A stretch of DNA of 64,000 nucleotides from Nitrospirota bacterium (GTDB lineage: Bacteria > Nitrospirota > Thermodesulfovibrionia > Thermodesulfovibrionales > UBA9159). Numbering within the stretch: position 1 is the first letter of the stretch; each line of letters begins with the position of its first letter. Below the pieces are notes generated by a model. The model was not told the origin of the DNA and searched no databases. It worked only from the letters and a program-made list of their open reading frames with translations. The stretch is from NCBI GenBank assembly GCA_963699545.1, contig CAVOUE010000003.1:800001-864000 (forward strand). The letters are read 5' to 3'. This document shows, piece by piece, positions 3,236 through 53,319 of this stretch. The position numbers and the translations under genes are program-made.

Positions 3236-3427
3236 TCATGCATATTCGCCCACAGGGTTTCGACCATTAACCTCTTTTATCTTGCTGGAATCCTTAACGA
3301 AGAAAGGACATTTCTTGTATCCCCTGGTCCTGCAGTATTCGTGGAGTTGAAACACGCTGGGCACATAGATCCTGCCATCGATTTTACAGGTCGCCACTAT
3401 CCAATGATTTAAGTGGGGGCATTTCAT
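3236..3427 (-). CDS. small Cys-rich hypothetical protein (63 aa)
   Basis: GGAGGAG SD, then MKCPHL...TCKI...EYCRT..YKKCPFF; four Cys. Confidence 0.6.
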   Translation of the reverse strand: MKCPHLNHWIVATCKIDGRIYVPSVFQLHEYCRTRGYKKCPFFVKDSSKIKEVNGRNPVGEYA

Positions 3428-3599
3428 GATCTCCTCCAAGTGGGGATGGCTGGCAGCCGTCCGAGCTCCTGCAACGGAAGTCCCTTTATCGAGGGAACCT
3501 CGATCCTGATGCGGCCTGGAACATGGTGTACTATCCTGTACTGAATCACCTCTCATTCTCCTCCTTCTTTTTCTCATTACGGACATTAAACCACCCTTG

Positions 3600-3627
3600 T
3601 GTTACAGGGTTATGAATACAAAGTTAA
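3600..3627 (-). promoter_or_regulatory. Pho-box-like array (3 half-sites, 11-bp period)
   Basis: Minus strand TTAACT-N5-TTCATA-N5-GTAACA. Confidence 0.55.
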
Positions 3628-3786
3628 ATTCTGGTGAAAACTCCTTCTGCTCGTAGGCAAGTAATGAAAAAATACATGGCGCCGTGTAGAGAAGCATGAT
3701 ACGCTTAAAGAGAGAAAAGGGTGTGTCTATTTTTCCTGGAGAGTATCTTTCCTTGAATTGCGCCTATTAGAGAAAGGAGGAACAGA

Positions 3787-4077
3787 GTGGGGCTTATTGA
3801 TGATGTGTTCAAAGGAAATGTGGTAACGGGCCTTGCGATCGGCATAGGTGCTGCTGTCCTTGGTCCTGCGGTGCTTCCCGTTATTGCAAGTGTGGCCAAA
3901 CCGGTGGCAAAGGCTGCAATAAAAGGGGGGATCATCCTTTACGAAAAGGGCAAAGAGGCCTTCGCAGAAATGGGTGAAGTGGTTGAGGATCTTGTAGCAG
4001 AAGCAAAATCAGAGGTGTCTGAGGCACAAAAAACTGCAGCTGCGGCATCTGCGGCCCAGGGTGAACCGGGTGCATGA
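3787..4077 (+). CDS. DUF5132-like GxxxG membrane protein (similar to fez-cluster accessory proteins)
   Basis: Strong SD AGAAAGGAGG. GLAIGIGAAVLGP hydrophobic GxxxG segment, KPVAKAAIKGG, and an EDLVAEAKSE helical tail. Confidence 0.75.
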   Translation: MGLIDDVFKGNVVTGLAIGIGAAVLGPAVLPVIASVAKPVAKAAIKGGIILYEKGKEAFAEMGEVVEDLVAEAKSEVSEAQKTAAAASAAQGEPGA

Positions 4078-4556
4078 TCCAGCCCGAGGCTCATATAAGT
4101 CATCATACCACTGGAAGAATGCGGATCAAGATACCCTCAAAAAAGGGGGACATCGCATATCTGGAGGCTTTGAAGGAACATTTTTCAGGGCTGGAAGGCA
4201 TCAGAGCCCTGGAGGTAAATCCGACGACGGGAAGTGTGCTCATTGTGCACAACCTCGACAGGCAGACCATTGAGCAGTATGCCACGGCAAAGAATCTCTT
4301 CAGCTTGACAGCAGCGAATCCCTCTCCTGCCGGCTTGCACCCGAAGGTGTCCGAGACTTTTCAGGATCTGAACGATCAAATGAAGGCATTCACGTCCGGG
4401 GAGATCAATGTTGGAGGAGCGGCATTCCTTGCCCTTCTTGGTGCGGGGATATACCAGATAGGCAGGGGGAATCTCACTGCCATTCCTTGGTATACCGCAT
4501 TCTGGTATGCTCTCAATATCTTTCTGAAATCCAAGAACGATTCAAAAATGGAATAA
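4074..4556 (+). CDS. HMA2-like domain protein with C-terminal TM helices (FezC-like)
   Basis: HHTTGRMRIK...EVNPTTGSVLIVH domain; C-terminal FLALLGAGIYQI..AIPWYTAFWYA; ATGA coupling to the upstream gene. Confidence 0.75.
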   Translation: MIQPEAHISHHTTGRMRIKIPSKKGDIAYLEALKEHFSGLEGIRALEVNPTTGSVLIVHNLDRQTIEQYATAKNLFSLTAANPSPAGLHPKVSETFQDLNDQMKAFTSGEINVGGAAFLALLGAGIYQIGRGNLTAIPWYTAFWYALNIFLKSKNDSKME

Positions 4557-4570
4557 GCCAGTTGATATAT

Positions 4571-4609
4571 TTAACATAATTGTCAACCTAACTTCACTAA
4601 TCTGTAACA
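4571..4609 (+). promoter_or_regulatory. Pho-box-like array (4 half-sites, 11-bp period)
   Basis: TTAACA(4571), GTCAAC(4582), TTCACT(4593), GTAACA(4604), upstream of the repeat protein-ATPase-metK operon. Confidence 0.55.
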
Positions 4610-4746
4610 GAGAGGCTGTAACATTATGATTGGTTTCAGGAGCATACCTCAGCATCTCTTATCACTATTCTTACGTGAAACAGGTATTGGTAAGGCATGT
4701 GAGAATTTTACAAACAAAATGCATTTAACCGGAAAGGAGGCATACT

Positions 4747-5418
4747 ATGCCAAGGGAAAATGTTGTAAAAAGTGCACCAGCAGGTAAAGAGGAAGTAACC
4801 AGCATGGGCAAAGCGGGTACATCAGTAAAAGAGGGTGTAGTGAGCAGTCTGAAGGGTATCAATGAGATCGAGGCTGAGATCGTCAGTCTGGTGAGGAACA
4901 CCGTTTCCAATACCCTGAGGGCCACCGGTAGCGTGGCCCATGAGGCGGTCACCATCACAAAGGATGTGGTAAAAGGGACGATCCAGGCTACAGAAGAAGT
5001 CGGCACAGGCCTTATCCTCAGCACAAAGAGTGTCGCCAAGGGAATCGTCATGGGTGTGAGTGATGTAGGCGGAGACGTCGTCACTGTTGCCAGCCAGACA
5101 GTAAAGGGTGCGGTGAAGGGCGCGGCAGAAGTGGGCGCGGATGTTGCCATGGTGGCAAGAAGGACGGTTGACGGAGTTATCGAGGCCACAAAAGAAATTG
5201 GCGGAAATGTGGAAGAAGTGGCAAAAGTGGCTGTGGGAGGAGCGATCGAAGCTGCAGGCACTATCGGAAATACTGCCGTGAAGGCCGTAAAAGATATGCT
5301 CGTCGGTGTTGTAGAGGGCGTAAAGGAAGTGGCAGGCTCAGCGCTGCCAAAGCCGCACCAGGTGCCTCCGCCCGCTCATAAGGAGACCGAGAGCCATGCA
5401 AAGGGAAGAAAGAGGTAG
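4747..5418 (+). CDS. Gly/Val/Ala-rich protein with tandem 22-aa amphipathic repeats
   Basis: SD GAAAGGAGG. Repeats VVKGTIQATEEVGTGLILSTKS / VAKGIVMGVSDVGGDVVTVASQ / TVKGAVKGAAEVGADVAMVARR / TVDGVIEATKEIGGNVEEVAKV / AVGGAIEAAGTIGNTAVKAVKD. Confidence 0.75.
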   Translation: MPRENVVKSAPAGKEEVTSMGKAGTSVKEGVVSSLKGINEIEAEIVSLVRNTVSNTLRATGSVAHEAVTITKDVVKGTIQATEEVGTGLILSTKSVAKGIVMGVSDVGGDVVTVASQTVKGAVKGAAEVGADVAMVARRTVDGVIEATKEIGGNVEEVAKVAVGGAIEAAGTIGNTAVKAVKDMLVGVVEGVKEVAGSALPKPHQVPPPAHKETESHAKGRKR

Positions 5419-5427
5419 TAAAGGGGC

Positions 5428-8400
5428 GTGGTCCAGCCGGTACATACGGCGGTAAAAGGGAGAACAAGATTTAGAGTAGATGGGCTTTATCGCTCTGAAG
5501 AACTCAAAAGAGAGATCGAATCAAGACTCTCTTCCTATAGGGAGATTCAGGGGTTCTCGGTAAATATCCTTACCGGTAAAGTCCTTGTATTTTATAACTC
5601 AGGTAACTCTCCCGAGTCGATTGCATCGCTCATTGCAGGCGTTGTAGGCGAGGCAGCGAAGGCGGGGAAACCGTCCCCACCGGTCCAGCGGACTGCAGTC
5701 CATGATCAGGGCGAGTGGCTTCCCGCAAGCACTATGCGGGCAGAATACCCTTACCCTGAAGCGGAGAGAAGCCAGCGTATACAGAGCAGAAGGACATTAA
5801 GAAGAAGCGTTGTCCTTTCCGAAGTGCAGACCGAGGAAGCCTGGCACCTCATGGACGCAACGGACGTGCTCGGAACTTTCGGCACGTCAAGAAATTCCGG
5901 ACTGTCCACCGATCTCGTCAGTGTAAATCTCAGGAAATTCGGACCCAATGTTCTTCCTGAAGCGGTCCCCCGTTCCGGGCTGAGTATGTTCTTCAATCAG
6001 TTCAAGTCCGTCCCTGTGGCACTTCTCGGTGTCGCAGCGGGTATTTCTGTTCTTACCGGCGGCCTTGCAGATGCCGTGGTGATCATGGGCGTGGTCTTCA
6101 TAAACGCAGCCATAGGGTACACAACCGAGAGCCAGACCGAAAAAACTATCCACGCCCTGAAGAACCTCGTCAGGCCCTCTGCCGTTGCGGTGCGTGACGG
6201 CAGTGTGAAAGAGATTGGGGCGGGAGAGATAGTGCCGGGAGACCTCCTGCTGCTTAGACCCGGCAGCTATGTTGCGGCGGATGCAAGACTCATCGAAACG
6301 AATCACCTGAGCATTGATGAGTCTGCCCTTACCGGTGAGAGCATGCCGGTGAACAAAGCTGTATCTCCTATCACGCAAAAGGATATCCCCCTCGCTGACA
6401 GGACAAACATGGTCTATATGGGCACCCTCGTTACCGGCGGACAGGGGCTTGCAGTCGTTGTGGCAACGGGGAGGTTCACCGAGATGGGCAAGATCCAGAC
6501 CCTTGTGGGTGAGGCAAGGCCTCCTGAAACACCCATGGAGCGCCAGTTGGACAGAATGGGCAGCCAGCTGGTATTTATCTGCGGAATAGTCTGCGGCATG
6601 GTCTTTGTCACCGGAATGCTCCGGGGATACGGTCTTTTGCAGATGCTTAAGGTTTCCATATCCCTTGCGGTGGCTGCGGTCCCGGAAGGTCTTCCCACGG
6701 TGGCAACCACTACCCTCGCCCTCGGCATCAGAAATATGCGGAAGCATAATGTCCTCATACGACATCTTAACGCGGTCGAGACCCTCGGCTCGGTCCAGAC
6801 CATATGCCTCGACAAGACAGGGACGATCACCTTTAACAGGATGTCCGTGGTCGCAGCATATGCCGGCATGAGAGGCTTCACCGTGTCTCATGGACAGTTT
6901 TTCCAATCCGGTGAACCTCTGAGCGTATATTTCCATGATGAACTCTTAAGACTCATTCACCTATCGGTCCTCTGTAATGAAAGTGAAGTGATCATGAGAG
7001 GACGGCAAATATGTCGTCAACGGCTCTCCGACCGAGAATGCCCTGATACACGTTGCATTAAGTTCAGGGGTTGACGTTCAGATGCTCAGGGAGAAGTTTC
7101 CTGTCCTGAAGATCTATCACCGTTCAGAGAAGCGAAATTACATGTATACGCTCCATGAAACCCGGAATAGTTCTGCACTCATTGCAGTAAAGGGAAGCCC
7201 CAATGAGGTGTTGTCGCTATGCATCTGGCAAATGAAGGATGGTCAGAAGATTCCCCTCACCGATGAAGACCGCCTCGCCCTGGAGACCGAAAATGAGCGC
7301 ATGGCGGGCGAGGCCCTCCGTGTTCTTGGGGTAGCGTATTCGTTTGCCGATGAGCCAGTCACTTCCGATCAAAGAGGACATAGATTCTGCGGACAATCTC
7401 ATTTGGGTCGGGTTTGTGGGCATGGCAGATCCGGTCAGGGATGGAGTGAGGGGATTAATAGGCGAATTTCACAAGGCCGGGATAGATACGGTCATGATTA
7501 CCGGTGACCAAAGCCCGACCGCTTATGCCATAGGAAAAGAATTGAACCTCAGTAATGGCGAACAGCTTGAGATCCTTGATTCCAGCCACCTGATCGATAT
7601 CGACCCTGAGGTGATGAAGGCGCTCTGCAAAAGGGTGCATGTCTTTGCCCGTGTCAGCCCTGCCCACAAACTCCGGATAGTCCAGGTGCTCCAGAGCGCG
7701 GGGAAGGTCGTTGCCATGACGGGCGACGGCATCAACGACGGGCCGGCCCTTAAAGCTGCGGACATCGGTATCGCCATGGGACATACAGGCACCGATGTCG
7801 CCCGTGAGGTGGCAGACGTCGTCATCGAGGACGATAACCTCGATACAATGGTCATTGCCATAAGTCAGGGAAGGACTATCTATAACAACATAAGGAAGTC
7901 CGTCCATTTTCTCTTGTCCACAAATCTCAGCGAGATCATGGTCATGTTCACTGCCATTGCAGGAGGTCTCGGCCAGCCTCTGAGTGCGATACAGTTGCTC
8001 TGGATCAACCTCATGTCCGATATAGCGCCGGGTCTGGCGCTTGCCCTCGAACCGCCGGAGCCTGATGTTCTGAGCCAGCCGCCGCGCGACCCTGACGAGC
8101 CCATTGTGAGGAAATCAGATTTCAAGAGAATCACCTTTGAATCAGCAATGATATCTGCCGGGACCTTAGGGGCTTACGGGTATGGCATTGCGAGATACGG
8201 CATGGGCCAAAAGGCAGGTAGTCTTGCGTTCCTGAGCCTTACCACAGGACAGCTCCTCCATGCGATCAGCTGCCGTTCAGAGAGGCACAGCATATTCGGC
8301 AGGGAGAAGTTGCCGCCGAACAAATATCTCAATATGGCCCTGGGGGGTTCCTTTGCCATCCAGCTCTTGGCTATGGTGATACCGGGGTTGAGAAATCTCC

Positions 8401-8513
8401 TGGGCATCGCTCCAATCAGTGTCCTTGATGGTGTTGTAATCGGAGGCAGCGCCGTTCTCCCCTTATTGGTGAATGAAGGAACGAAGAAACTCCCGAAAGA
8501 GGTAACCGCATGA
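5428..8513 (+). CDS. P-type cation-transporting ATPase, P2A-like, with N-terminal HMA2-like domain (2 frameshifts)
   Basis: TGES, AVAAVPEGLP, DKTGT, KGSP, MITGD, GDGINDGPAL and QLLWINLMSD motifs across ORFs 5428-7074, 7082-7507 and 7344-8513. N-terminus HTAVKGRTRFRV...VNILTGKVLVFY. Confidence 0.9.
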
Positions 8514-9709
8514 AAAAAGACTTCATCTTTACATCAGAATCCGTAACAGAAGGCCATCCTGACAAGCTCTGCGACCAGATAAGCGACGCCATAGTTGACC
8601 ATTTCCTTCAGCAGGACCCCTATTCAAGGGTCATTGCCGAGTGCGCAGTATCGACTGCGATCATGTTCATCGCCGCGAGGTTCGAATCTAATGCGAGCGT
8701 GGATTTCCCGAATATAGCGAGGCAGGTCGTAAACCAGATCGGTTATGACCAGGATGCCTTTAATGCAAAGACGTGCAGCATCGTGACAAGTCTCAAGGAA
8801 TTGCCCCATGATGAGCATTGCTGCTTTGATGAAAGAAAACTGTCAGATGCGGAGATCGATGCAATTCCCGCGCGCAACCAGGTTACCGTCTTCGGTTTTG
8901 CCTGCAACCAGACATCTGCCCTTATCCCCCTTCCCATCTGGCTGGCCCACAGACTGGCAAGGAAACTCACCTCCGTCAGACTCCAGAAGATACTCTCCTA
9001 TCTTGCGCCTGATGGGAAAACGCAGGTGGGGATCGAGTACAGGAACGGAAAGCCTCACAGGATCCACAGCATCACGGTTATCGCCAGTCAGGACAGGCCT
9101 TCAGCGGCAGGAGGCCCTGATATGAAGAGGCTCGAAGACGATATCAGGCAGGTTGTTATAGATTCTGTATTCCCTGATGAGGATATAAAACCTGACAGAA
9201 ACACAAAGATATTTATCAATCCTGATGGCCCGTTTATCATCGGAGGTCCCTCAGTCCATTCCGGGCTGACGGGAAGGAAAAATGCAATTGATACGTACGG
9301 AGAATACTCCCGACAGAGCGGAGCTGCCCTCAGCGGTAAAGACCCTATGCGTATAGACAGGATAGGCGCCTATGCGGCCCGTTACGCAGCAAAGAATGTC
9401 GTTGCTGCAGGACTCGCGGATGAGTGCGAAATACAGCTCAGCTACTCCATCGGTCTTGCGAGGCCTGTGAGCATTCAGGTAGAGACCTTCGGCACGGGAA
9501 AGATCCCTGATGAGAAAATCTCAGCGCTCGTTGAGAGACATTTTGATTTCCGTCTGGCAGGGATCATACGACAGTTTAATCTGAGATACCTCCCATCGAT
9601 TTTGAAGGGTGGCTTTTACAGAAAACTTGCGGCTTACGGACATGTGGGGAGAATGGATATAGGACTTCCCTGGGAGCTGATAGACAAAATGAGCGAGATG
9701 AGAGGGTAA
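8510..9709 (+). CDS. metK: methionine adenosyltransferase homologue (divergent MetK paralogue)
   Basis: FTSESVTEGHPDKLCDQISD, PDGKTQV, GLTGRK, SGKDP and AAYGHVGR present; GAGDQG and GGPxGD motifs altered. Confidence 0.85.
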   Translation: MKKDFIFTSESVTEGHPDKLCDQISDAIVDHFLQQDPYSRVIAECAVSTAIMFIAARFESNASVDFPNIARQVVNQIGYDQDAFNAKTCSIVTSLKELPHDEHCCFDERKLSDAEIDAIPARNQVTVFGFACNQTSALIPLPIWLAHRLARKLTSVRLQKILSYLAPDGKTQVGIEYRNGKPHRIHSITVIASQDRPSAAGGPDMKRLEDDIRQVVIDSVFPDEDIKPDRNTKIFINPDGPFIIGGPSVHSGLTGRKNAIDTYGEYSRQSGAALSGKDPMRIDRIGAYAARYAAKNVVAAGLADECEIQLSYSIGLARPVSIQVETFGTGKIPDEKISALVERHFDFRLAGIIRQFNLRYLPSILKGGFYRKLAAYGHVGRMDIGLPWELIDKMSEMRG

Positions 9710-9789
9710 GGGGAGCATGGAACGTACGCGGTGTGATAGCAACATCGAGGCATTAAAGGCGGACTTCAGGAAATGAGAGGAGGATCAGT

Positions 9790-9987
9790 ATGATATCAAC
9801 GCAAGATCTGCTCGTCGTCCTGGTAATCGTCCTTGTTTTGTTCGGTAAGACGAGGCTGCGCGAACTCGCTAAAGGGTTGAAAGAAGGGGTCAAGAATTAC
9901 AAGAAGAGCCTGTCCGAGCCGGACGAAATAGACGTTACGCCCAAAAAAAATAAGAATAACAAAGAAGGCCGGAGTTGTAGAAAATGA
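9790..9987 (+). CDS. tatA: TatA/E family subunit
   Basis: N-terminal TM LLVVLVIVLVLFG, then amphipathic RLRELAKGLKEGVKNYKK; strong SD. Confidence 0.7.
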   Translation: MISTQDLLVVLVIVLVLFGKTRLRELAKGLKEGVKNYKKSLSEPDEIDVTPKKNKNNKEGRSCRK

Positions 9988-10137
9988 TAGGCAACCAACA
10001 CATAGAACAGCAGCCGTAAGACACAAAAAGCAAGCCGCGGCCTTGAGCCAGTGTAGCCTATAAGTTGTCTCTCACGCTTTATTCTTCCCTCTGACGTTAC
10101 CGATCCGCTCCTTTCTTTCTTCATTACTCACCTCTGA

Positions 10138-10176
10138 TTCATCAACATGTAACACGCCTTTCATCATCGCTTAACC
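10138..10176 (+). promoter_or_regulatory. Pho-box-like array (4 half-sites, 11-bp period)
   Basis: TTCATC(10138), GTAACA(10149), TTCATC(10160), TTAACC(10171), upstream of a secreted phosphoesterase. Confidence 0.65.
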
Positions 10177-10449
10177 ATGCTCAGGTATTCTCAAACAGAA
10201 CACAATGACGCATTCTCCACGCAACGGAACTAAAAGCTAGTTTTCCTGAAGGAGAGAGGCAGTCAAATGAGAACGATTCTGCAGGGTCGATTGTCTGAAC
10301 CGTGGGAAACAAAAGGAGGTGAAGAGGAAGAATTGTAAGGAAAGCAGCGTAACACGCTGACAAGAAGATAATGCATCACGCAGGACAAAACACTTCGTAA
10401 TGGAAAGCCGCATTAAGCGGCCGCACTAAATCTCTCAGGAGGATAAAGT

Positions 10450-12257
10450 ATGTCAACGAAAAGGTATACCCAGAGGTTTCTCTCTCTCCTCGTGATCCTG
10501 TCACTGGCGATGTTTATCGCAGTCACATCGGCATTCGCGGAACCCTGGAAGTTCGGCGTAATGTCCGACACTCAGTGGAAGACCTCCCCAGATGCGAAGA
10601 ATCCAAACACTGTGGCGGTCGGACCGATCATTCACCTCAACCAGGAATTCAAGAACCACGGTGTCAAGTTCGTTATCCAGACCGGGGACTTGACGGAAAA
10701 CGGCAACAACCTTGAGATGGATACAACTGCAACCTTCAGGCAGGCCCTTTATAACGCCGGTATCGGCTTCTACCCGCTCCGTGGCAACCACGATACATTT
10801 GCTGCGGTCGCCACGAGTTCCAGGCGTCTTCCCGCAGACCCAGACCGGGTAAACAACCAGACTCCTACCGACGCGCTGGTCACCACCCCCTATTACGGCA
10901 ACCCCATCGACCCGGCGAACCCATATAACCTGTTCAACACGAACACCACCTTCACTGTCGGGTCCAATTTCAGCAGCCCGACGGACATTGACCCTAACTA
11001 TGCCGGGTCTGACTTACTCGTTCGATTACGACAATGCCCGTTTCGTGATGCTGGACGGTTTTACGATACCGAACATTGCCTGTAATCTGATTGAGAACCA
11101 GCAGCCCTGGATATCGAGCACGCTTTCGACCAGGCCGGCAGAGACTCCCATGCCTTTGTATTTTCCCACAAAGGCCTGATCACTGAAAACCATACGGATA
11201 TCCTCTTTACGCTCCGGGCAAGTGCAACGGCAGCAGCACCAGCAGCAATCCTTCCGTCAAACCTGCTGAGCAGAATGCGTTTATGAGCAGCCTGTTCAAC
11301 AACGGCGTCCGGTATCTCATGAACGGCCACGACCACATGCACAACCGGGCTATTGTCGACGAGCCCGGACGCCCTCTCGACAGGTACAGAACATCACCAC
11401 CTCCTCCAACAGCTACAAGTTCTATATTCCGCTTGATCCCGTCGAACGACGAAACGTTCAAAGCTGACCTACGGCATCACGCAACGCTTTCCCCGGGAGA
11501 CCGGAGATCGCTCAGGAGCTCTTCACCGTCGGCTACTACATCGTCACGGTGGACGGACCGCGGGTGACCGTGGACCACTACTCTTCGCCGAACGGTTGCA
11601 ATGGCGACTGCGACCAGACCAACGATCGTAATTCCTACACCTTCACCAAGCGCGAGACCTTCGGCTACAGCCTCAACGGCCAGGAATTCCTTGGTTGGCA
11701 GGGCGAGTCCTACACGGCTGTTCAGGACAGCTTCGAGGGCACGACTGCGAAGATCCTTGGCTGGCGTCAACGGCAGCACGGCAACGGTCTATGACGGCCG
11801 CGCAATGACCAAGGCCGTCAATACCGGGTGGACCTCGGGTCAGAAGCTGATGACATGGACTACAGTGCCAGCCACAGGTGGCCGTGGTTCTCTAAGAAGC
11901 GCTACCAGAGGAAGGATGACGAAATGCCTGCCAGCGATATCCTCACCCTCTGGGGCATGGCCGACCTCGGGAGCGACCAGACCGACGTGTACACGCTCTC
12001 GATGAGCTATGACCACCACAAATTGCTCCCCATTCAACTCGGGAAAGGGCCTGTTGGGCCTTGCAACGAGGGATGAGAACGGCGACTGGGTCAACGCCGT
12101 GGATATGAACTTCGGCGGCACCAAGAAATTCGTCCTCGGCCCCTGGAAGCCCGGCTACGAGCTCGGCACATACGGTATCGACCTGAAAACACACACCGCC
12201 TGGGCGGTCATTAACTACAATGGCGATTTCGCCGTCGCCGGGTTCAGACATTTTTGA
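10450..12257 (+). CDS. secreted calcineurin-like metallophosphoesterase (multiple frameshifts)
   Basis: Signal peptide (..TSAFA-EP). SDTQ, TGDL, RGNHD and GHDH motifs. The C-terminus ...AWAVINYNGDFAVAGFRHF ends at 12257. Confidence 0.75.
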
Positions 12258-12327
12258 TGAAGATAGGTGACAGGAAGAAGTAGGAAGCTGACCCTGAAAG
12301 ATAAGGGTGCGATTCATCCGCAGGAAG

Positions 12328-12361
12328 GGAGCCCGTGAAAGTTCTCACGGGCTCCGTTTTT
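12328..12361 (+). terminator. intrinsic terminator
   Basis: GGAGCCCGTGA-AAGTTC-TCACGGGCTCC followed by GTTTTT, between convergent genes. Confidence 0.8.
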
Positions 12362-12391
12362 ATGGCCTGTTCAGGTGGATTTCACCATCCC

Positions 12392-12782
12392 TCATTCATT
12401 CTTTGCAGCTGATGTGGTTCTCCCTGCAGGCTTCCTCGCAGGCTTCTTCCTGAGAGGTGCCTTTCTTTGTCTCTTTTTCGGCTTTCCCTCAAGTTTCATA
12501 ATTTCATCCTGCAGTTTTCCGATTCTGGCTTTAATGGCTTTGACCTTGCTGTCGGACATCGGATTCTTCACCTTTGAACTCAAATCATACACTCTTCCAC
12601 CAAGCTCCGCTATCTCCTTCTGCACTTTTGTCTGCAAGTCAAAAAGCTTATAACGTCTTTTCCCTTCCTCAGTGAGTTCTTCTGCTTTTTTCTGCACAAC
12701 CGCGGCACCTTCTTTGACAAAGAGTGATGCTTTCCTCGACACCTGTTTGCAAATCCTTCTTGATCTTTTCCCAGAAGTTCAT
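12392..12782 (-). CDS. coiled-coil protein with basic Lys/Arg/Pro-rich tail, loosely phasin-like (1 frameshift)
   Basis: SD GAGGAGAAGG; MNFWEKIKKDLQTG... continuing into KEGAAVVQKKAEELTEEGKRR...RKKPARKPAGR. Confidence 0.6.
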
Positions 12783-12805
12783 AGTCCTTCCTCCTCTCAT
12801 TGACT

Positions 12806-13144
12806 CTATTCTTCTAACCCTCCCCCTCCCAATGCCGTTACAACCTTTTCAGCCACTTCAAGGGCCTTTTCAGTGGCTTTCTCTATATACTGATCGCACG
12901 TTTCTGCCTTTGCAAGACAAAAATAACCATACTTCTCCAGAATACCGATGACCTGTTCACAGTTGATCTTCTTTTCATCAAAGTGTAGTACTGCACTTCC
13001 GGTGACCGTATGGGTCTCCACAGCGGTTATTCCCTCAATTCCTTTTATAAACGTTTGAAACTGCTCAGCCTTTTCCGGGTTTTCCCGAATCACCGGGGTT
13101 TCGATCCTTATCCTGCCGGGCACATAATGAATATAATATTCCAT
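12806..13144 (-). CDS. HMA2-like domain protein
   Basis: MEYYIHYVPGRIRIETP...GITAVETHTVTGSAVLHFD; SD GGGAGG. Confidence 0.75.
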   Translation of the reverse strand: MEYYIHYVPGRIRIETPVIRENPEKAEQFQTFIKGIEGITAVETHTVTGSAVLHFDEKKINCEQVIGILEKYGYFCLAKAETCDQYIEKATEKALEVAEKVVTALGGGGLEE

Positions 13145-13244
13145 TTCCCGTCCTCCCGTCTCGGACAGCATAGAACAGCTGTCAACTTCTTCTATTTTAG
13201 CAGCCACACCCTTTATTCTCAATATACTTTATGTCCTAAGGCAT

Positions 13245-13263
13245 TATGAGAATCCATTTTCAA
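13245..13263. promoter_or_regulatory. Fur/PerR-box-like imperfect palindrome
   Basis: TATGAGAATCCATTTTCAA about 100 bp upstream of the HMA2 gene at 13144. Confidence 0.4.
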
Positions 13264-13491
13264 CCCGCAGTCTGCAACGTTATGGCTTTGGATAGTATAG
13301 CAACAAGACATATCTTGTCGTCCTTTATGGAGGAGTATTCAGCTAGGGCTTGTTTGATTTGCGTTTGGAAATCAGACCACCAGAGACTTTAGTGATGTGA
13401 ATTATGTTTTATTGTCATTCAGGAAATAAATAAGGAAGGAATATGAGCAGGCAGTCTGGGCGAGCCCTTGCAGGGAACGGGATGAAAAAAT

Positions 13492-13864
13492 CTATATCAG
13501 GAGAGTGATAAGAGACAATGCAGATCCTTCCAGTGCCGTTTCTAGAAAGGTACCGAAGATGGCTCTCCCCACCACATCTCCTGCTTTGGAAGCGGCTCTG
13601 TGGATGTACTGGTCGTTTGTCAAGGCCTTTGATGTGTCAAAATAGCCTTTTCTCTGAAGGAGACTCACGATGTCATCGTGATGTATGGTCTTGGGGTTAT
13701 AATTCACAAGAATGCTTCCGGTAGTCAGGTTAATATCTACCGTTGCTATCCCCTGCATGGTGCTCAAGCTCTTCCTGATATCATCAGCGATATCCTGATT
13801 CCTCTCTGACCAAAGGGCTTTTCACCCTCAGCCTTCCGGGAACGTTATGGATGTAATAGCTCAT
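13492..13864 (-). CDS. HMA2-like domain protein (1 frameshift)
   Basis: MSYYIHNVPGRLRVKSP (ATG 13864) joins STMQGIATVDINLTTGSILVNYNP; hydrophobic C-terminus. Confidence 0.7.
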
Positions 13865-14159
13865 CTTTTTCCTCCTTTATCCTGAATTTCCTGTACTCTC
13901 TGCATTCCGGATATCCTGAGCATCTGAACCGTATAACCTCTCCCTCAATCTTGTAGACATTCATGCTCTTTCCGCAGGCGGGACAGACCGGTTTGCCCTT
14001 TACCGATAACTTCTTGGCATTCTTGGTAAACTGCATGCCGCACATCATGCAAAGGAATCTCTCTTTTCCGGTCCAGGCCTTTCCGTATTTATATACTGCA
14101 TCCGAAGCGCAATCCGGGCATTTGGCATTGAGTTTCTCGATTACGGCTTGTGCTTCCAT
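13845..14159 (-). CDS. double zinc-ribbon protein (IS1 InsA-like and topoisomerase C4-like ribbons)
   Basis: CPDCAS..YKYGK...RFLCMMCG and CPACGKSM...FRCSGYPEC. Confidence 0.65.
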   Translation of the reverse strand: MEAQAVIEKLNAKCPDCASDAVYKYGKAWTGKERFLCMMCGMQFTKNAKKLSVKGKPVCPACGKSMNVYKIEGEVIRFRCSGYPECREYRKFRIKEEKDELLHP

Positions 14160-14180
14160 ATTTATATTTAATCAAATGAT

Positions 14181-14219
14181 TTTTACAGCATTATTAAGGG
14201 ATTGTTACATTTTCGTTAC
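14181..14219 (-). promoter_or_regulatory. Pho-box-like array (4 half-sites, 11-bp period)
   Basis: Minus strand GTAACG-N5-GTAACA-N5-TTAATA-N5-GTAAAA. Confidence 0.55.
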
Positions 14220-14409
14220 ATTTCAGTGTTTCAGCAGCGGTCTCCCGCAATAGGGAGATATAGATTGCGCATACTTCATAGTGTCTCCCCATGCAGAGCC
14301 GAATGTCAGCCCCTTGTATAGACCTGACCAACTTGTTCAGCACGTTGCATTTTGCCCCATTCGAGCTTCCCTCAAGGTACTGACAAAGCATTCCTCTTGA
14401 CTGGTACAT
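14194..14409 (-). CDS. small Cys-rich hypothetical protein
   Basis: SD AAGGAGG; MYQSRGMLCQYL...AKCNV...RLCMGRHYEVC. Confidence 0.6.
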   Translation of the reverse strand: MYQSRGMLCQYLEGSSNGAKCNVLNKLVRSIQGADIRLCMGRHYEVCAIYISLLRETAAETLKCNENVTIP

Positions 14410-14452
14410 TACTTCCTCCTTTTCTTTCTCTTTACAACTATACAATCTTATC

Positions 14453-14480
14453 TGTTACAGCATTGTTACAAGAATATTAA
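14453..14480 (-). promoter_or_regulatory. Pho-box-like array (3 half-sites)
   Basis: Minus strand TTAATA-N5-GTAACA-N5-GTAACA. Confidence 0.6.
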
Positions 14481-14569
14481 ATTTCTGAGAAAAGACATAA
14501 AAGGGGAAATCAGTAATCATGCTGACTGCCTGAGAAAGTCTTTTGATCCATCTTAAACCCTCTGTTACG

Positions 14570-14737
14570 CTACGCAACTCTTCTGCATGCCATACCCGTT
14601 GAGATGAAATAGAGAGAAATGAAAACCTTGCATTTCTCCCACTCTCCCATCAAACAGCATTTTTTGTCAGCACACGGTATCCTTTCCGGCTCGATACCTG
14701 CCACTTCACAAATCCCCTTCTTGAAACTTGGACACAT
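14570..14737 (-). CDS. small Cys-rich hypothetical protein
   Basis: MCPSFKKGICEVAG...PCADKKCC..WEKCKVF; SD GGGGGGTG. Confidence 0.5.
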   Translation of the reverse strand: MCPSFKKGICEVAGIEPERIPCADKKCCLMGEWEKCKVFISLYFISTGMACRRVA

Positions 14738-14820
14738 TTCGATCACCCCCCCTATGTCATTACCCCAACCCGCTTCACAGGATAAATCTTGGCTGTCTGC
14801 AGTCAAGGTTATCATCGAGA

Positions 14821-14848
14821 TGTTACAGCATGATGAAGCAGAGGTTAA
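14821..14848 (-). promoter_or_regulatory. Pho-box-like array (3 half-sites)
   Basis: Minus strand TTAACC-N5-TTCATC-N5-GTAACA. Confidence 0.55.
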
Positions 14849-15369
14849 TTTTCTTAGGCAAGGAATTTTAAGGCACGTAAATAAATTGAAGTTACATGCT
14901 GTTGAGGAATGTTACTTAAGACTATAATTCAATATGTTAAGCATAAATCCAAAATAGAAACCCTTTGCAAGAATGGCTCTGAGCGGTCCTGGATCCAGCC
15001 CTCCTGCCAATCCCGCCACTCTCTCAGGCTATCTCTCTTCGTCCGAATTGCTGCTCTTCTTGAACACCTCAGGATCTATGTTCCCCGACCCGGGCCCTCC
15101 GCACTCCGGAATATAACAGGTAACGTCAACGTACTCACACTTTTCTTTGCATGAAGGACAAAGGTCCGGCGGAACATCCGCTTTCATCGTGTAGCCGCAT
15201 TTATTACATTTCCAGAAGTCATACCTGCCTCCTTCTTTACCGCTGCGTTAACACTAGTATATCAGGTCCAGGTCGAGCGTACATGAAGCTGCTTTTTGTT
15301 GACTTAAACGCGCGAATTCTAATATCATGTCCGGAGAGGACCAAGATCGAATTTATGAGGAGGATACGT

Positions 15370-45420: not shown

Positions 45421-45470
45421 AATGAAGAAATGACTTGACAGGAGAGGAGATAAGTATCATAAATAGAGAA

Positions 45471-45623
45471 ACAGGTGCAAGAGCTTAATAGGGAATCCCG
45501 TGAAAATCGGGAGCGGTCCCGCCGCTGTAAACGGGGACAAAAGCCGACTGAGCCACTTTTCCGGATTATCGGGATGGGAAGGCCGGCAAGTAGGATGATC
45601 CGTTAGCCAGAAGACCTGCCTGT
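45471..45623 (+). promoter_or_regulatory. cobalamin riboswitch
   Basis: AGGTG..AATAGGGAATCCCGTGAAAATCGGGAGCGGTCCCGCCGCTGTA...AGCCAC...GGGAAGG...AGCCAGAAGACCTGCCT (B12 box), upstream of btu/cob genes. Confidence 0.93.
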
Positions 45624-45786
45624 GCTCTAGTGATTTAGTAAGGAGTTATTGGCCCGGAGATAAAGCTCTCCGAGCTCTGAACAGAGAACTCCGGACTAAA
45701 GAGCTTCCCGTGGAGGAAGTGGGGCCCCAGGAAATTGAAAATTTTTTGGGGCATCGATTGGGGATGAAGTGAAACAGGGTGCAATC

Positions 45787-53068: not shown

Positions 53069-53105
53069 CGTGAGCGAATATATTATGAACAACTGCTTTC
53101 AGCAG

Positions 53106-53280
53106 TTTAAGGAGGTATTTCAGGGGAATCCCGTGAAACCGGGAACTGCCCCGCAACTGTAAAGGGAACGAAAGCCGCCGTGAGCCAAAGAGCCACTGTC
53201 CGCCTCAGACGGATGGGAAGGCCGGCGAGTAGGCTGCCTCTGAATGAGGCAACGCCCTGAGTCAGGAGACCCTGGATACC
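53106..53280 (+). promoter_or_regulatory. cobalamin riboswitch
   Basis: GGGGAATCCCGTGAAACCGGGAACTGCCCCGCAACTGTA...GCCACTG...GGGAAGG...GAGTCAGGAGACC, upstream of btuB. Confidence 0.92.
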
Positions 53281-53319
53281 GGAAAACTAAATACCCTTCG
53301 AGGGAAGAGGAGGTTTTTT

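Follow-up and report, generated by a model that had tools for sequence, protein, structure and literature searches.

What does a bacterial gene cluster build when it encodes a P-type ATPase together with small membrane-hairpin proteins, a protein made of 22-residue repeats and a divergent copy of MetK, the S-adenosylmethionine (SAM) synthetase? The question is raised by a stretch of 64,000 nucleotides, hereafter the window, from a Nitrospirota metagenome-assembled genome (MAG; assembly GCA_963699545.1, contig CAVOUE010000003.1, positions 800001-864000, or G000 C3:800001-864000 in our numbering), and all feature coordinates given below are window positions. The genome itself (G000) comprises 3.04 Mb in 13 contigs, with 52% GC. 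An earlier reading, made from the sequence alone and referred to here as the original prediction, had described the cluster as a ferrosome-like organelle module built on a P2A-type ATPase and apparently regulated by phosphate. Our analyses support a part of this description and lead us to regard the cluster as probably a widely conserved, so far undescribed Pho-response operon of anaerobic Nitrospirota and Thermodesulfobacteriota, encoding a cation pump that would work in a specialised membrane patch.

Storage bodies bounded by lipid, and platforms that scaffold pumps, were discovered recently in bacteria, and each of them is tied to few genes. The module considered here reuses the CoBaHMA/R-rich domain, GxxxG hairpins and a P-type ATPase in a new mix, which adds another class of pump, a coat-like protein, an enzyme paralog and a wiring to phosphate. 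Solving it would assign a function to the DUF5132, CoBaHMA and repeat-protein families, test the proposal that CoBaHMA domains sense lipids, and reveal the role of a MetK without a methionine pocket. Because culturable strains of Fischerella carry the core of pump and MetK, part of the module is directly testable.

Three published systems provide the terms of comparison, each taken here as far as the passages of the sources at hand describe it. Ferrosome (fez) clusters encode a P1B-6 pump, FezB, with an N-terminal R-rich motif, as well as accessory proteins with the same motif, among them FezC (an HMA domain with two transmembrane (TM) segments), and small GxxxG proteins (Grant et al., bioRxiv 10.1101/2020.01.10.902569). 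In Microcystis aeruginosa PCC 7806, the gene ccyA (calcyanin), a marker of intracellular amorphous calcium carbonate granules, is surrounded by co-expressed genes that encode a Ca2+/H+ exchanger as well as DUF5132 and CoBaHMA proteins (Bruley et al., bioRxiv 10.1101/2024.07.07.602159). Calcyanin is recognised by a C-terminal triple GlyZip domain. CoBaHMA domains have a cysteine-free HMA-like fold, thus lacking CxxC, in which a conserved His lies upstream and the first strands carry basic residues; binding of anionic lipids by the basic patch has been proposed by others. Finally, PacL of Mycobacterium tuberculosis, which joins a TM domain to a cytoplasmic region of Glu/Ala repeats and is encoded beside P-type ATPases, stabilises and clusters these pumps in the cell membrane without any compartment (PMC9374683, PMC13043812). 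We found no published description of the operon in the literature on DUF5132, CoBaHMA, PF19991/HMA_2 and Pho-linked P-type ATPases with SAM synthetase; related architectures may be listed in the paper defining CoBaHMA (Gaschignard et al. 2024) or in the supplement to Grant et al. In the literature searched, DUF5132/PF19991 is mentioned only by Bruley et al., and publications on carbonate- or silica-forming magnetotactic Nitrospirota name no such genes.

A syntenic gene set in anaerobic bacteria

One genome per species was scanned for relatives of the pump, yielding 596 pattern matches and 122 confirmed relatives, the best 80 of which constitute the loci L001-L080. L001-L056 hold close relatives of the pump, and L057-L080 ordinary type-II pumps that can be aligned only from about residue 123 on. 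The window proteins were compared with L001-L056 by tblastn, and the denominators below are the loci that could be evaluated for each gene. MAGs of both Nitrospirota and Thermodesulfobacteriota repeatedly show the gene order DUF5132, CoBaHMA-TM, repeat protein, ATPase, MetK. The pump carries its N-terminal domain at 52 of 56 loci and is directly followed by MetK at 48/51; the repeat protein lies directly upstream of it at 39/51 (0/9 in cyanobacteria), CoBaHMA-TM is present at 37/46 and DUF5132 precedes the pump at 36/45. On the minus strand, a CoBaHMA gene was found downstream at 25 of 38 loci, a zinc-ribbon gene at 21 of 38 and the coiled-coil protein at 11 of 56. At the 24 ordinary type-II pumps of L057-L080, tblastn found no module neighbours. 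Synteny in dozens of genomes shows that the gene set is far beyond chance.

Every gene listed in the original prediction (DUF5132, CoBaHMA-TM, two further HMA_2 proteins, the repeat and coiled-coil proteins and the ATPase) was recovered among the open reading frames (ORFs) and Pfam matches of the window. Profile searches with the accessory ORFs returned the DUF5132 and HMA_2 matches listed in Table 1, and the neighbourhood conservation that had been put forward as a check is borne out by the counts above.

The genomes carrying the module are labelled Nitrospirota, Syntrophorhabdaceae, Syntrophobacteraceae, Syntrophales, Desulfobacterales and Ca. Magnetomicrobium. Of 401 genomes sampled in the phylum, 55 were found to carry the repeat protein, and they represent 34 of 163 genera; the module occurs in about one in seven of the Nitrospirota genomes sampled, as well as in several further phyla. 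Its recurrent neighbours are Pst/PhoU components, CDF transporters, a small DUF3562 protein that follows MetK at some loci, kinases, two-component systems, a hydrolase and the zinc-ribbon protein; Feo, Fur and carbonic anhydrase were not seen among the recurrent neighbour clusters, the most frequent of which were annotated.

The fused pump is also found at nine cyanobacterial loci (L039, L042-L045, L047, L049, L053 and L055), belonging to Fischerella, Pelatocladus, Calothrix, a Leptolyngbyaceae MAG and a Crinalium MAG. The MetK paralog directly follows the pump at seven of these nine; the Leptolyngbyaceae locus L049 holds MetK fragments only, and at the Crinalium locus L053 the pump stands by itself. 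In Calothrix (L047), DUF5132, CoBaHMA-TM and a PstB-like gene (53% identity) lie within 10 kb. A profile of the repeat protein had no match in any of five cyanobacterial genomes at E <= 0.01.

In a FastTree phylogeny of 79 ATPases, from which the broken window copy and ORFs shorter than 800 aa were left out, the fused pumps fell together in a single clade of 53 rows, with an SH-like support of 100, apart from the plain type-II pumps. Because the nine cyanobacterial pumps constitute a single subclade (support 100) nested among those of anaerobes, the tree suggests a transfer of the pump, in one direction or the other, between anaerobes and cyanobacteria.

A type-II pump with an N-terminal CoBaHMA domain

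The Pfam domains of the ATPase are HMA_2 (residues 5-65, 1.2e-7), Cation_ATPase_N, E1-E2, Cation_ATPase, Hydrolase and Cation_ATPase_C. The protein contains AVAAVPEGLP and QLLWINL, with TM4 reading VAAVPEGLP, and so combines the type-II domain set with the TM4 PEGLP of P2A Ca2+-ATPases. The motifs CPx, D[YF]SCA and HNxxT are absent from the three pieces of the window ATPase and from the pumps of L001 and L044. The orthologue at L001, a single frame of 1027 aa with 90% protein identity to the window ATPase, was compared with the NCBIfam models: the two best were the PMR1-type IIA2 (TIGR01522, 635 bits) and the SERCA-type IIA1 (TIGR01116, 562 bits), as against 249 bits for the heavy-metal model TIGR01525. 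The best solved relatives of the C-terminal half of the ATPase are the P2A pumps for Ca2+ or Ca2+/Mn2+ human SPCA1 (2.7e-66), Listeria LMCA1 and SERCA (range to 1.2e-62), which share its domain set. The Glu of TM4 is present and the Asn and Asp of TM6 are identical to those of SPCA1, whereas TM5 has Asn/Glu where SPCA1 has Ser/Ala.

Because of PEGLP, the Cation_ATPase_N/C domains and the kinship with SPCA1, LMCA1 and SERCA, the pump is, judged from its sequence, a distinct branch of the type-II pumps nearest to IIA and no relative of FezB; the P2A assignment made originally, as opposed to P1B-6, is thereby upheld. It differs from SPCA1, LMCA1 and SERCA in that a CoBaHMA domain and a linker, together about 135 residues, are added at its N-terminus, in scores below both IIA equivalog cut-offs and in forming a clade separate from plain bacterial type-II pumps. 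By likeness only, Ca2+ or Mn2+ would be the likeliest substrate.

A second P-type ATPase, with a TM4 of the TPEMLP type, was observed 2-3 kb downstream of the module at three Nitrospirota loci (L011:14235-16188, L016:15828- and L017:16271-). Those of L016 and L017 had been considered as candidates for FezB-like pumps and were dropped, given their TPEMLP-type TM4 and the absence of P1B-6 motifs; judged by eye, these second ATPases look like the Mg2+ importer MgtA.

Small membrane proteins and a repeat protein encoded with the pump

The DUF5132 protein has a single long hydrophobic stretch (residues 7-41), and an alignment of 20 homologues revealed invariant G19 and G21 within a Gly/Ala-rich segment; it is thus a small hydrophobic GxxxG protein of the kind counted among fez components. 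Its stop codon is overlapped by the start of CoBaHMA-TM, in which H10, R15 and R17 are invariant among 23 homologues and the hairpin is rich in Trp and Tyr. HMA_2 matches were obtained for CoBaHMA-TM, the ATPase N-terminus, HMA2b and HMA2c, all with the H...GR-x-R signature of the CoBaHMA family, in the variants GRTR (ATPase), GRMR (CoBaHMA-TM), GRIR (HMA2b) and GRLR (HMA2c). The claim that the ATPase and the accessory proteins have an H-x(3,4)-GR-x-R domain in common is therefore confirmed. A modelled complex of CoBaHMA-TM and DUF5132 (score 0.09, mark 0.32) carries no weight either way.

The 22-residue period noticed earlier in the third protein proved to be clean, self-identity being 0.28 at a lag of 22, 0.22 at a lag of 44 and about 0.09 at other lags. 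Helices at residues 16-151 and 155-199 are predicted by AlphaFold2 (mean pLDDT 68, pTM 0.28), so that the protein would be, with moderate confidence, essentially one long helix, with a hydrophobic period of 11/22 residues. Between families of the phylum its sequence identity amounts to 75-89%; it is often multicopy and is conserved more strongly than the pump; a look-up in the protein atlas returned unnamed clusters only.

A MetK paralog with an altered methionine pocket

The MetK gene overlaps the stop codon of the ATPase by 4 nt, and its product scores above the TIGR01034 cut-off (381 vs 309.4 bits). Five other carrier genomes (G001-G005, of which G001 and G005 are cyanobacterial) each hold a canonical metK (541-599 bits) in addition to the cluster copy (365-388 bits), and two Fischerella genomes have, besides the canonical gene, an additional MetK copy of the divergent type. 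In G000, an incomplete MAG, the cluster copy is the sole metK seen.

Fifty-five paralog rows, including four duplicates and two second copies of Fischerella, were compared column by column with five canonical rows. The paralogs retain GHPDK (55/55), PDGK, GLTGRK and SGKD. The Glu that follows the first strand block (canonical 5/5) is replaced by Arg in 53/55 paralogs, the Gln of the gating-loop stem (canonical 5/5) by a hydrophobic residue (L/F/M/V) and the Asp of GGPxGD (canonical 5/5) by His in all 55; moreover, canonical GAGDQG (5/5) has become P-[VA]-[RK]-N-Q-V and GGGAFSGKD has become SG[AS]ALSGKD. The remodelling of MetK announced in the original prediction is thus visible both in the scores and in the replaced pocket residues. 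If the replaced polar residues (Glu, Gln and Asp) are the binders of the amino-acid end of methionine in the Escherichia coli enzyme, which we take them to be, the paralog would handle ATP/triphosphate yet not methionine in the usual way.

Predicted phosphate-responsive promoter elements

In G000 and five relatives, the promoter of pstS contains four TGTAAC-type hexamers with a period of 11 bp. From these six arrays a position weight matrix (PWM) of 45 nt was derived, with which both strands of G000 were scanned; the best-ranking sites are listed in Table 1. Similar 11-bp direct repeats, resembling the genome's own pstS promoter, are predicted at 14179-14863, where three arrays each precede one gene: the small Cys-rich ORF, the second such ORF and the zinc-ribbon gene. 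The strongest of them, at 14451-14495, is followed by a TATAGT -10 box and a good ribosome site. The regulator/kinase pair on C10 that follows the third-ranking site, with its PhoB-like regulator at C10:7419-8129, has PhoB (279 bits) and PnpS/PhoR (380 bits) as its best NCBIfam matches. With these predicted sites, phosphate control is well supported for the minus-strand arm and for the small genes on the flanks.

The pump operon is linked to phosphate by adjacency. PstS-PstCA-PstB-PhoU lies directly upstream of the module at L002, L009, L010, L011 and L015, PstS alone at L007, and parts of the Pst system are present at L021, L029, L047 and L050. This makes phosphate control of the pump operon itself plausible. 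With the Pho boxes of the minus-strand arm and the Pst adjacency, the link to phosphate is stronger than the original prediction could have revealed; the array next to DUF5132 faces the opposite way.

About 115-130 nt upstream of the DUF5132 start lies a further conserved element, TAGG[CT]A-N-GTAATGAAAGA, for which a regular expression found matches at 28 of the loci L001-L056, at a distance of 70-230 nt upstream of DUF5132; behind it come a -35-like box, (T/A)(A/G)GAC, and a -10 of the form TAnAnT. The loci with the element include L002, L004-L017, L019-L020, L023-L024, L026, L028, L030-L032, L040 and L041. Its TAGGCAAGTAATGAA form occurs at only three places in G000, including the window, C11:70849(-) and C7:107330(+), and the copy on C11 precedes an operon of ParA-like, CBM48 and CoBaHMA genes. 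An interpretation of TAGG[CT]AnGTAATGAAAGA as a sigma-54 or extracytoplasmic function (ECF) promoter was dropped, its spacing misfitting the consensus.

A second phosphate island was observed at C11:62255-75493 (L093). It comprises pstSCAB-phoU, two HMA_2 genes and three further high-scoring Pho boxes, a protein with a CBM48/AMPK-type glycogen-binding domain, a cytochrome P460-like protein, a ParA/MinD-like ATPase, a response regulator with its kinase and a DedA/VTT protein.

A pump in a proposed specialised membrane patch and the alternatives to it

The explanation that we consider probable would work as follows. At low phosphate, PhoB would switch on the genes of the cluster, and the pump would be made together with DUF5132, CoBaHMA-TM, the helical repeat protein and the MetK paralog, while a second arm (the zinc-ribbon protein, two soluble CoBaHMA proteins and the coiled-coil protein) would be driven by canonical Pho-box promoters. 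A specialised patch of membrane, in which the pump is held and regulated, would be arranged by the small hairpin and coat-like proteins, and the pump presumably moves a divalent cation out of the cytosol. The patch could lie in the cell membrane or in an internal compartment, both of which are covered by the proposal. Gene content, synteny, the class of the pump, the altered MetK pocket and the Pho boxes are established by the data; the ion, the direction in which it is pumped, any physical assembly and the part played by the MetK paralog are deduced.

Several points weigh against this explanation. The strong Pho boxes belong to the minus-strand arm and the small Cys genes, and the array at 3601-3639 (17/24 matches, reached by 0/200 shuffles; PWM 4.5 at position 3587, rank about 36) points away from DUF5132, towards the truncated CoBaHMA gene and the third small Cys ORF. 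Within 250 bp upstream of DUF5132, a significant array was found at no more than 9 of the 38 loci that could be evaluated (counting the window); for the pump operon, control by Pho is therefore inferred and perhaps specific to some lineages, and Pst adjacency is limited to a minority of loci, several of them close kin. The PWM is over-fitted, because it was built from six related promoters, spacers included, with G000's own pstS among them. No public RNA run was found that covers window positions 5400-9700. The L001 pump falls below the curated IIA cut-offs (635 vs 798.3 and 562 vs 703.4 bits), and since it scores under both equivalog cut-offs Ca2+ is not established as its substrate; the ion-binding roles of the TM4, TM5, TM6 and TM8 residues, like those of the MetK pocket residues, are assumed. 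Lastly, if the frame breaks described below were real, the window copy would be dead.

The first alternative is a plain efflux platform in the cell membrane, similar to the PacL/Ctp effluxosome, in which DUF5132 and CoBaHMA-TM would act as chaperone-scaffolds that stabilise and cluster an exporter; the cations to be exported would be divalents that rise as phosphate or polyphosphate pools fall or that enter as metal-phosphate complexes. DUF5132 shares the layout of PacL as published, a TM segment followed by a Glu/Ala-rich helix encoded near a P-type ATPase (PMC9374683, PMC13043812), and CtpC is among the P1B pumps for which an R-rich N-terminal motif is described (bioRxiv 10.1101/2020.01.10.902569). 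The closest solved relatives of the pump export from the cytosol, and a CDF transporter (Pfam Cation_efflux 5e-41) directly follows MetK at six loci (L001, L013, L014, L019, L021 and L024), whereas at L007 and L009 it is encoded on the opposite strand, another 4-5 kb downstream. However, DUF5132 gave no Pfam match to DUF1490/PacL or any other family at E <= 0.1, and its 20 homologues have neither a His/Asp-rich tail nor, at the C-terminus, any motif for binding metal. A plain efflux platform also leaves the repeat protein and the MetK paralog unexplained, and it overlaps with the specialised-patch explanation, which covers either membrane location. As a separate explanation we consider it rather unlikely; judged by analogy, a membrane scaffold platform would fit the data equally well as an organelle.

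According to the second alternative, the cluster encodes a ferrosome-like organelle, in which the hairpin proteins would shape a compartment bounded by lipid, the repeat protein would coat it and the pump would fill it with Ca2+ or Mn2+, the ion being stored with phosphate, polyphosphate or carbonate. The parts list parallels that of the fez clusters as published: a P-type ATPase with an HMA protein of two TM segments, a shared H...GRxR motif and small GxxxG proteins (bioRxiv 10.1101/2020.01.10.902569), and both cluster types span phyla of anaerobes. The likeness of CoBaHMA-TM to FezC is one of architecture, drawn from the published description, and the module is known from its genes alone. 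In contrast to FezB, a P1B-6 pump, the window pump is of type II (PEGLP, Cation_ATPase_N/C) without P1B-6 motifs; instead of recurrent iron genes, Pst/PhoU, CDF and two-component systems lie beside the module, and its constant repeat protein and MetK paralog have no counterpart in the fez descriptions consulted.

The ccyA neighbourhood is a closer published parallel: DUF5132 (a TM segment with a long helix) and CoBaHMA proteins, one of them with a C-terminal helical hairpin, there too flank a calcium transporter and are co-expressed with ccyA (bioRxiv 10.1101/2024.07.07.602159). The described transporter is, however, a Ca2+/H+ exchanger accompanied by calcyanin, whereas the module has a CoBaHMA-fused P-type ATPase, MetK and the repeat protein; at the cyanobacterial ATPase-MetK loci inspected, neither a ccyA-like context nor an adjoining calcium exchanger was found. 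The predicted long helix of the repeat protein, with the 11/22 hydrophobic period that a surface coat would have and a conservation stronger than that of the pump, speaks for an organelle, as does the ParA-like ATPase that is encoded with more CoBaHMA genes in the second Pho island behind the same conserved element. On the other side, no inclusion, mineral or compartment was found reported for any carrier in the literature searched, induction by phosphate starvation fits a store of phosphate mineral poorly, iron genes and carbonic anhydrase are not among the annotated recurrent neighbours, and the repeat protein is absent from all five cyanobacterial genomes searched. We retain from the original prediction the parallel in parts; its organelle is conjectural and unlikely in our view, and nothing shows an organelle, mineral or polyphosphate.

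A third alternative is that the module is a decaying relic, its frameshifts and the truncated CoBaHMA gene being real and the module dead in G000. Compared with L001 and L002, the ATPase gene is split over three frames by two independent +1 insertions, at 6994 and about 7354, which lie outside long homopolymers; HMA2c is frameshifted near 13805, with its N-terminal motif in another frame, the metallophosphoesterase is scattered over at least four frames, and the CoBaHMA gene upstream of the module has lost its C-terminal half. Against decay, the essential rpoB is also in two frames (G000 C12:38396-42287; rpoC is intact), a gene for an MgtA-like ATPase at C7:103399-106836 is in at least six pieces, and the completeness score of G000 is 86.9%. 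In a count of split genes among G000 homologues at least 55% identical to, and at least 70% covered by, proteins of the loci compared, 8 of 28 compared places, or 7 of 26 distinct genes, were multi-frame, the ATPase included. The other genes of the cluster are intact, 77-94% identical to L001 and free of stop codons. The extra base at 6994 is missing from one contig of a public sequencing run and that at 13805 from a contig of run X1; the runs contain at most 0.19 of the window's words, and the contigs of four of them (X1, X2, X3 and X5), being only 90-99% alike to the window, derive from other strains and hence cannot settle the frameshifts. Because rpoB and about a quarter of the comparable genes are split too, we hold with some confidence that the frame breaks in the pump and its neighbours are assembly or consensus indel errors, and a relic appears doubtful. 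Gene calls from G000 nevertheless need care, in view of the many single-base frame breaks in the assembly.

Least probable, and in our opinion very doubtful, is the most far-reaching version, in which the operon would build a phosphate-starvation-induced, membrane-bounded cation store, the type-II-pump counterpart of the ferrosome, with hairpins shaping the membrane, the repeat protein coating it and the rebuilt MetK making another adenosyl compound or tri-/pyrophosphate instead of SAM, and whose core of pump and MetK would have moved between anaerobes and heterocystous cyanobacteria.

Features of the cluster and flanking genes

Table 1. Genes and promoter elements of the cluster, with the best-ranking PWM sites of G000 (positions refer to the window unless a contig is named)
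Feature	Position	Strand	Evidence and remarks
Small 4-Cys protein	3236-3427	-	ORF; no Pfam match; internal-Met start inferred from L015 and L002
Truncated CoBaHMA remnant	3424-3549	-	H-x-x-PGRIRIE kept, C-terminal half missing, compared with intact genes of about 100 aa at L015 and L002
Pho-box-like array	3601-3639	-	TTTCAC, TTTAAC, ATTCAT, TGTAAC; then TTTAAT, a possible -10
Conserved element TAGG[CT]A-N-GTAATGAAAGA	3654-3671	+	Upstream of DUF5132
DUF5132 protein	3787-4077	+	Pfam PF17195, 7.1e-15; N-terminal hydrophobic Gly-rich segment and Glu/Ala-rich helix
CoBaHMA-TM protein	4074-4556	+	Pfam HMA_2 PF19991, 1.6e-15; C-terminal two-helix hydrophobic membrane hairpin
22-residue-repeat protein	4747-5418	+	223 aa, about 8 repeats; no Pfam family
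Type-II P-type ATPase with N-terminal CoBaHMA	5428-8513	+	Frames 5428-6993, 6995-7353 and 7355-8513
Divergent MetK paralog	8510-9709	+	TIGR01034, 381 bits; rebuilt methionine pocket
TatA/E-family protein	9790-9987	+	Pfam TatA_B_E, 4.7e-10; not a conserved module member
Calcineurin-like metallophosphoesterase	10450-12257	+	Pfam Metallophos, 3.7e-6; signal-peptide-like N-terminus
Coiled-coil protein	12392-12742	-	Translation; Lys/Arg/Pro-rich basic tail; no family match
HMA2b, soluble CoBaHMA protein	12806-13222	-	Pfam HMA_2, 5.8e-16
HMA2c, soluble CoBaHMA protein	13492-13864	-	Pfam HMA_2; one frameshift near 13805; intact paralog at G000 C11:71559-71930
Double zinc-ribbon protein	13845-14159	-	Zn_ribbon_InsA, 5.3e-9; Zn_ribbon_IS1595, 1.8e-8; first gene of the minus-strand arm
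Pho-box array	14179-14223	-	PWM 21.0, rank 7; directly upstream of the zinc-ribbon gene
Small 4-Cys protein	14194-14408	-	ORF; start placed after Shine-Dalgarno
Pho-box array	14451-14495	-	TTTCTC, TTTAAT, TGTAAC, TGTAAC; PWM 36.6, rank 2 genome-wide after pstS
Small Cys-rich protein	14570-14737	-	ORF; start read from sequence
Weaker Pho-box array	14819-14863	-	PWM 9.6, rank 11
PWM site at pstS	C11		Score 63.1, rank 1 by construction
PWM site before regulator/kinase pair	C10:8176		Score 29.1, rank 3
PWM site before DedA/VTT gene	C11:74849		Score 27.7, rank 4
PWM site before small Cys protein and intact HMA2c paralog	C11:72530		Score 24.5, rank 5
PWM site upstream of pstS array	C11:66892		Score 21.5, rank 6

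Between the two arms of the cluster, the TatA/E-family protein is followed by the metallophosphoesterase, a homologue of which was found at L022 alone among the loci compared. The combination of a Tat component with a secreted phosphoesterase is a phosphate-starvation pairing exemplified by phoD-tatAdCd of Bacillus subtilis. No Pho box was scored at the pair (9790-12257), and it is not conserved beside the module in other loci.

An Rfam scan of the whole window returned two cobalamin riboswitches (RF00174) and nothing else; both are on the plus strand, at 45456-45636 (108.7 bits) and 53084-53290 (67.8 bits), far from the cluster and unrelated to it.

The small Cys proteins of the flanks belong to a family of 55-80 aa with four spaced Cys residues and no Pfam match, whose members in G000 are encoded at 3236-3427, 14194-14408, 14570-14737 and C11:72283-72525(-). 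In the first of these, only the C-terminal part is conserved, at L002, L007, L008, L009, L011 and L015. Because each of the genes lies directly behind a Pho-box promoter, the Pho regulon of this lineage may include these proteins as members not yet described.

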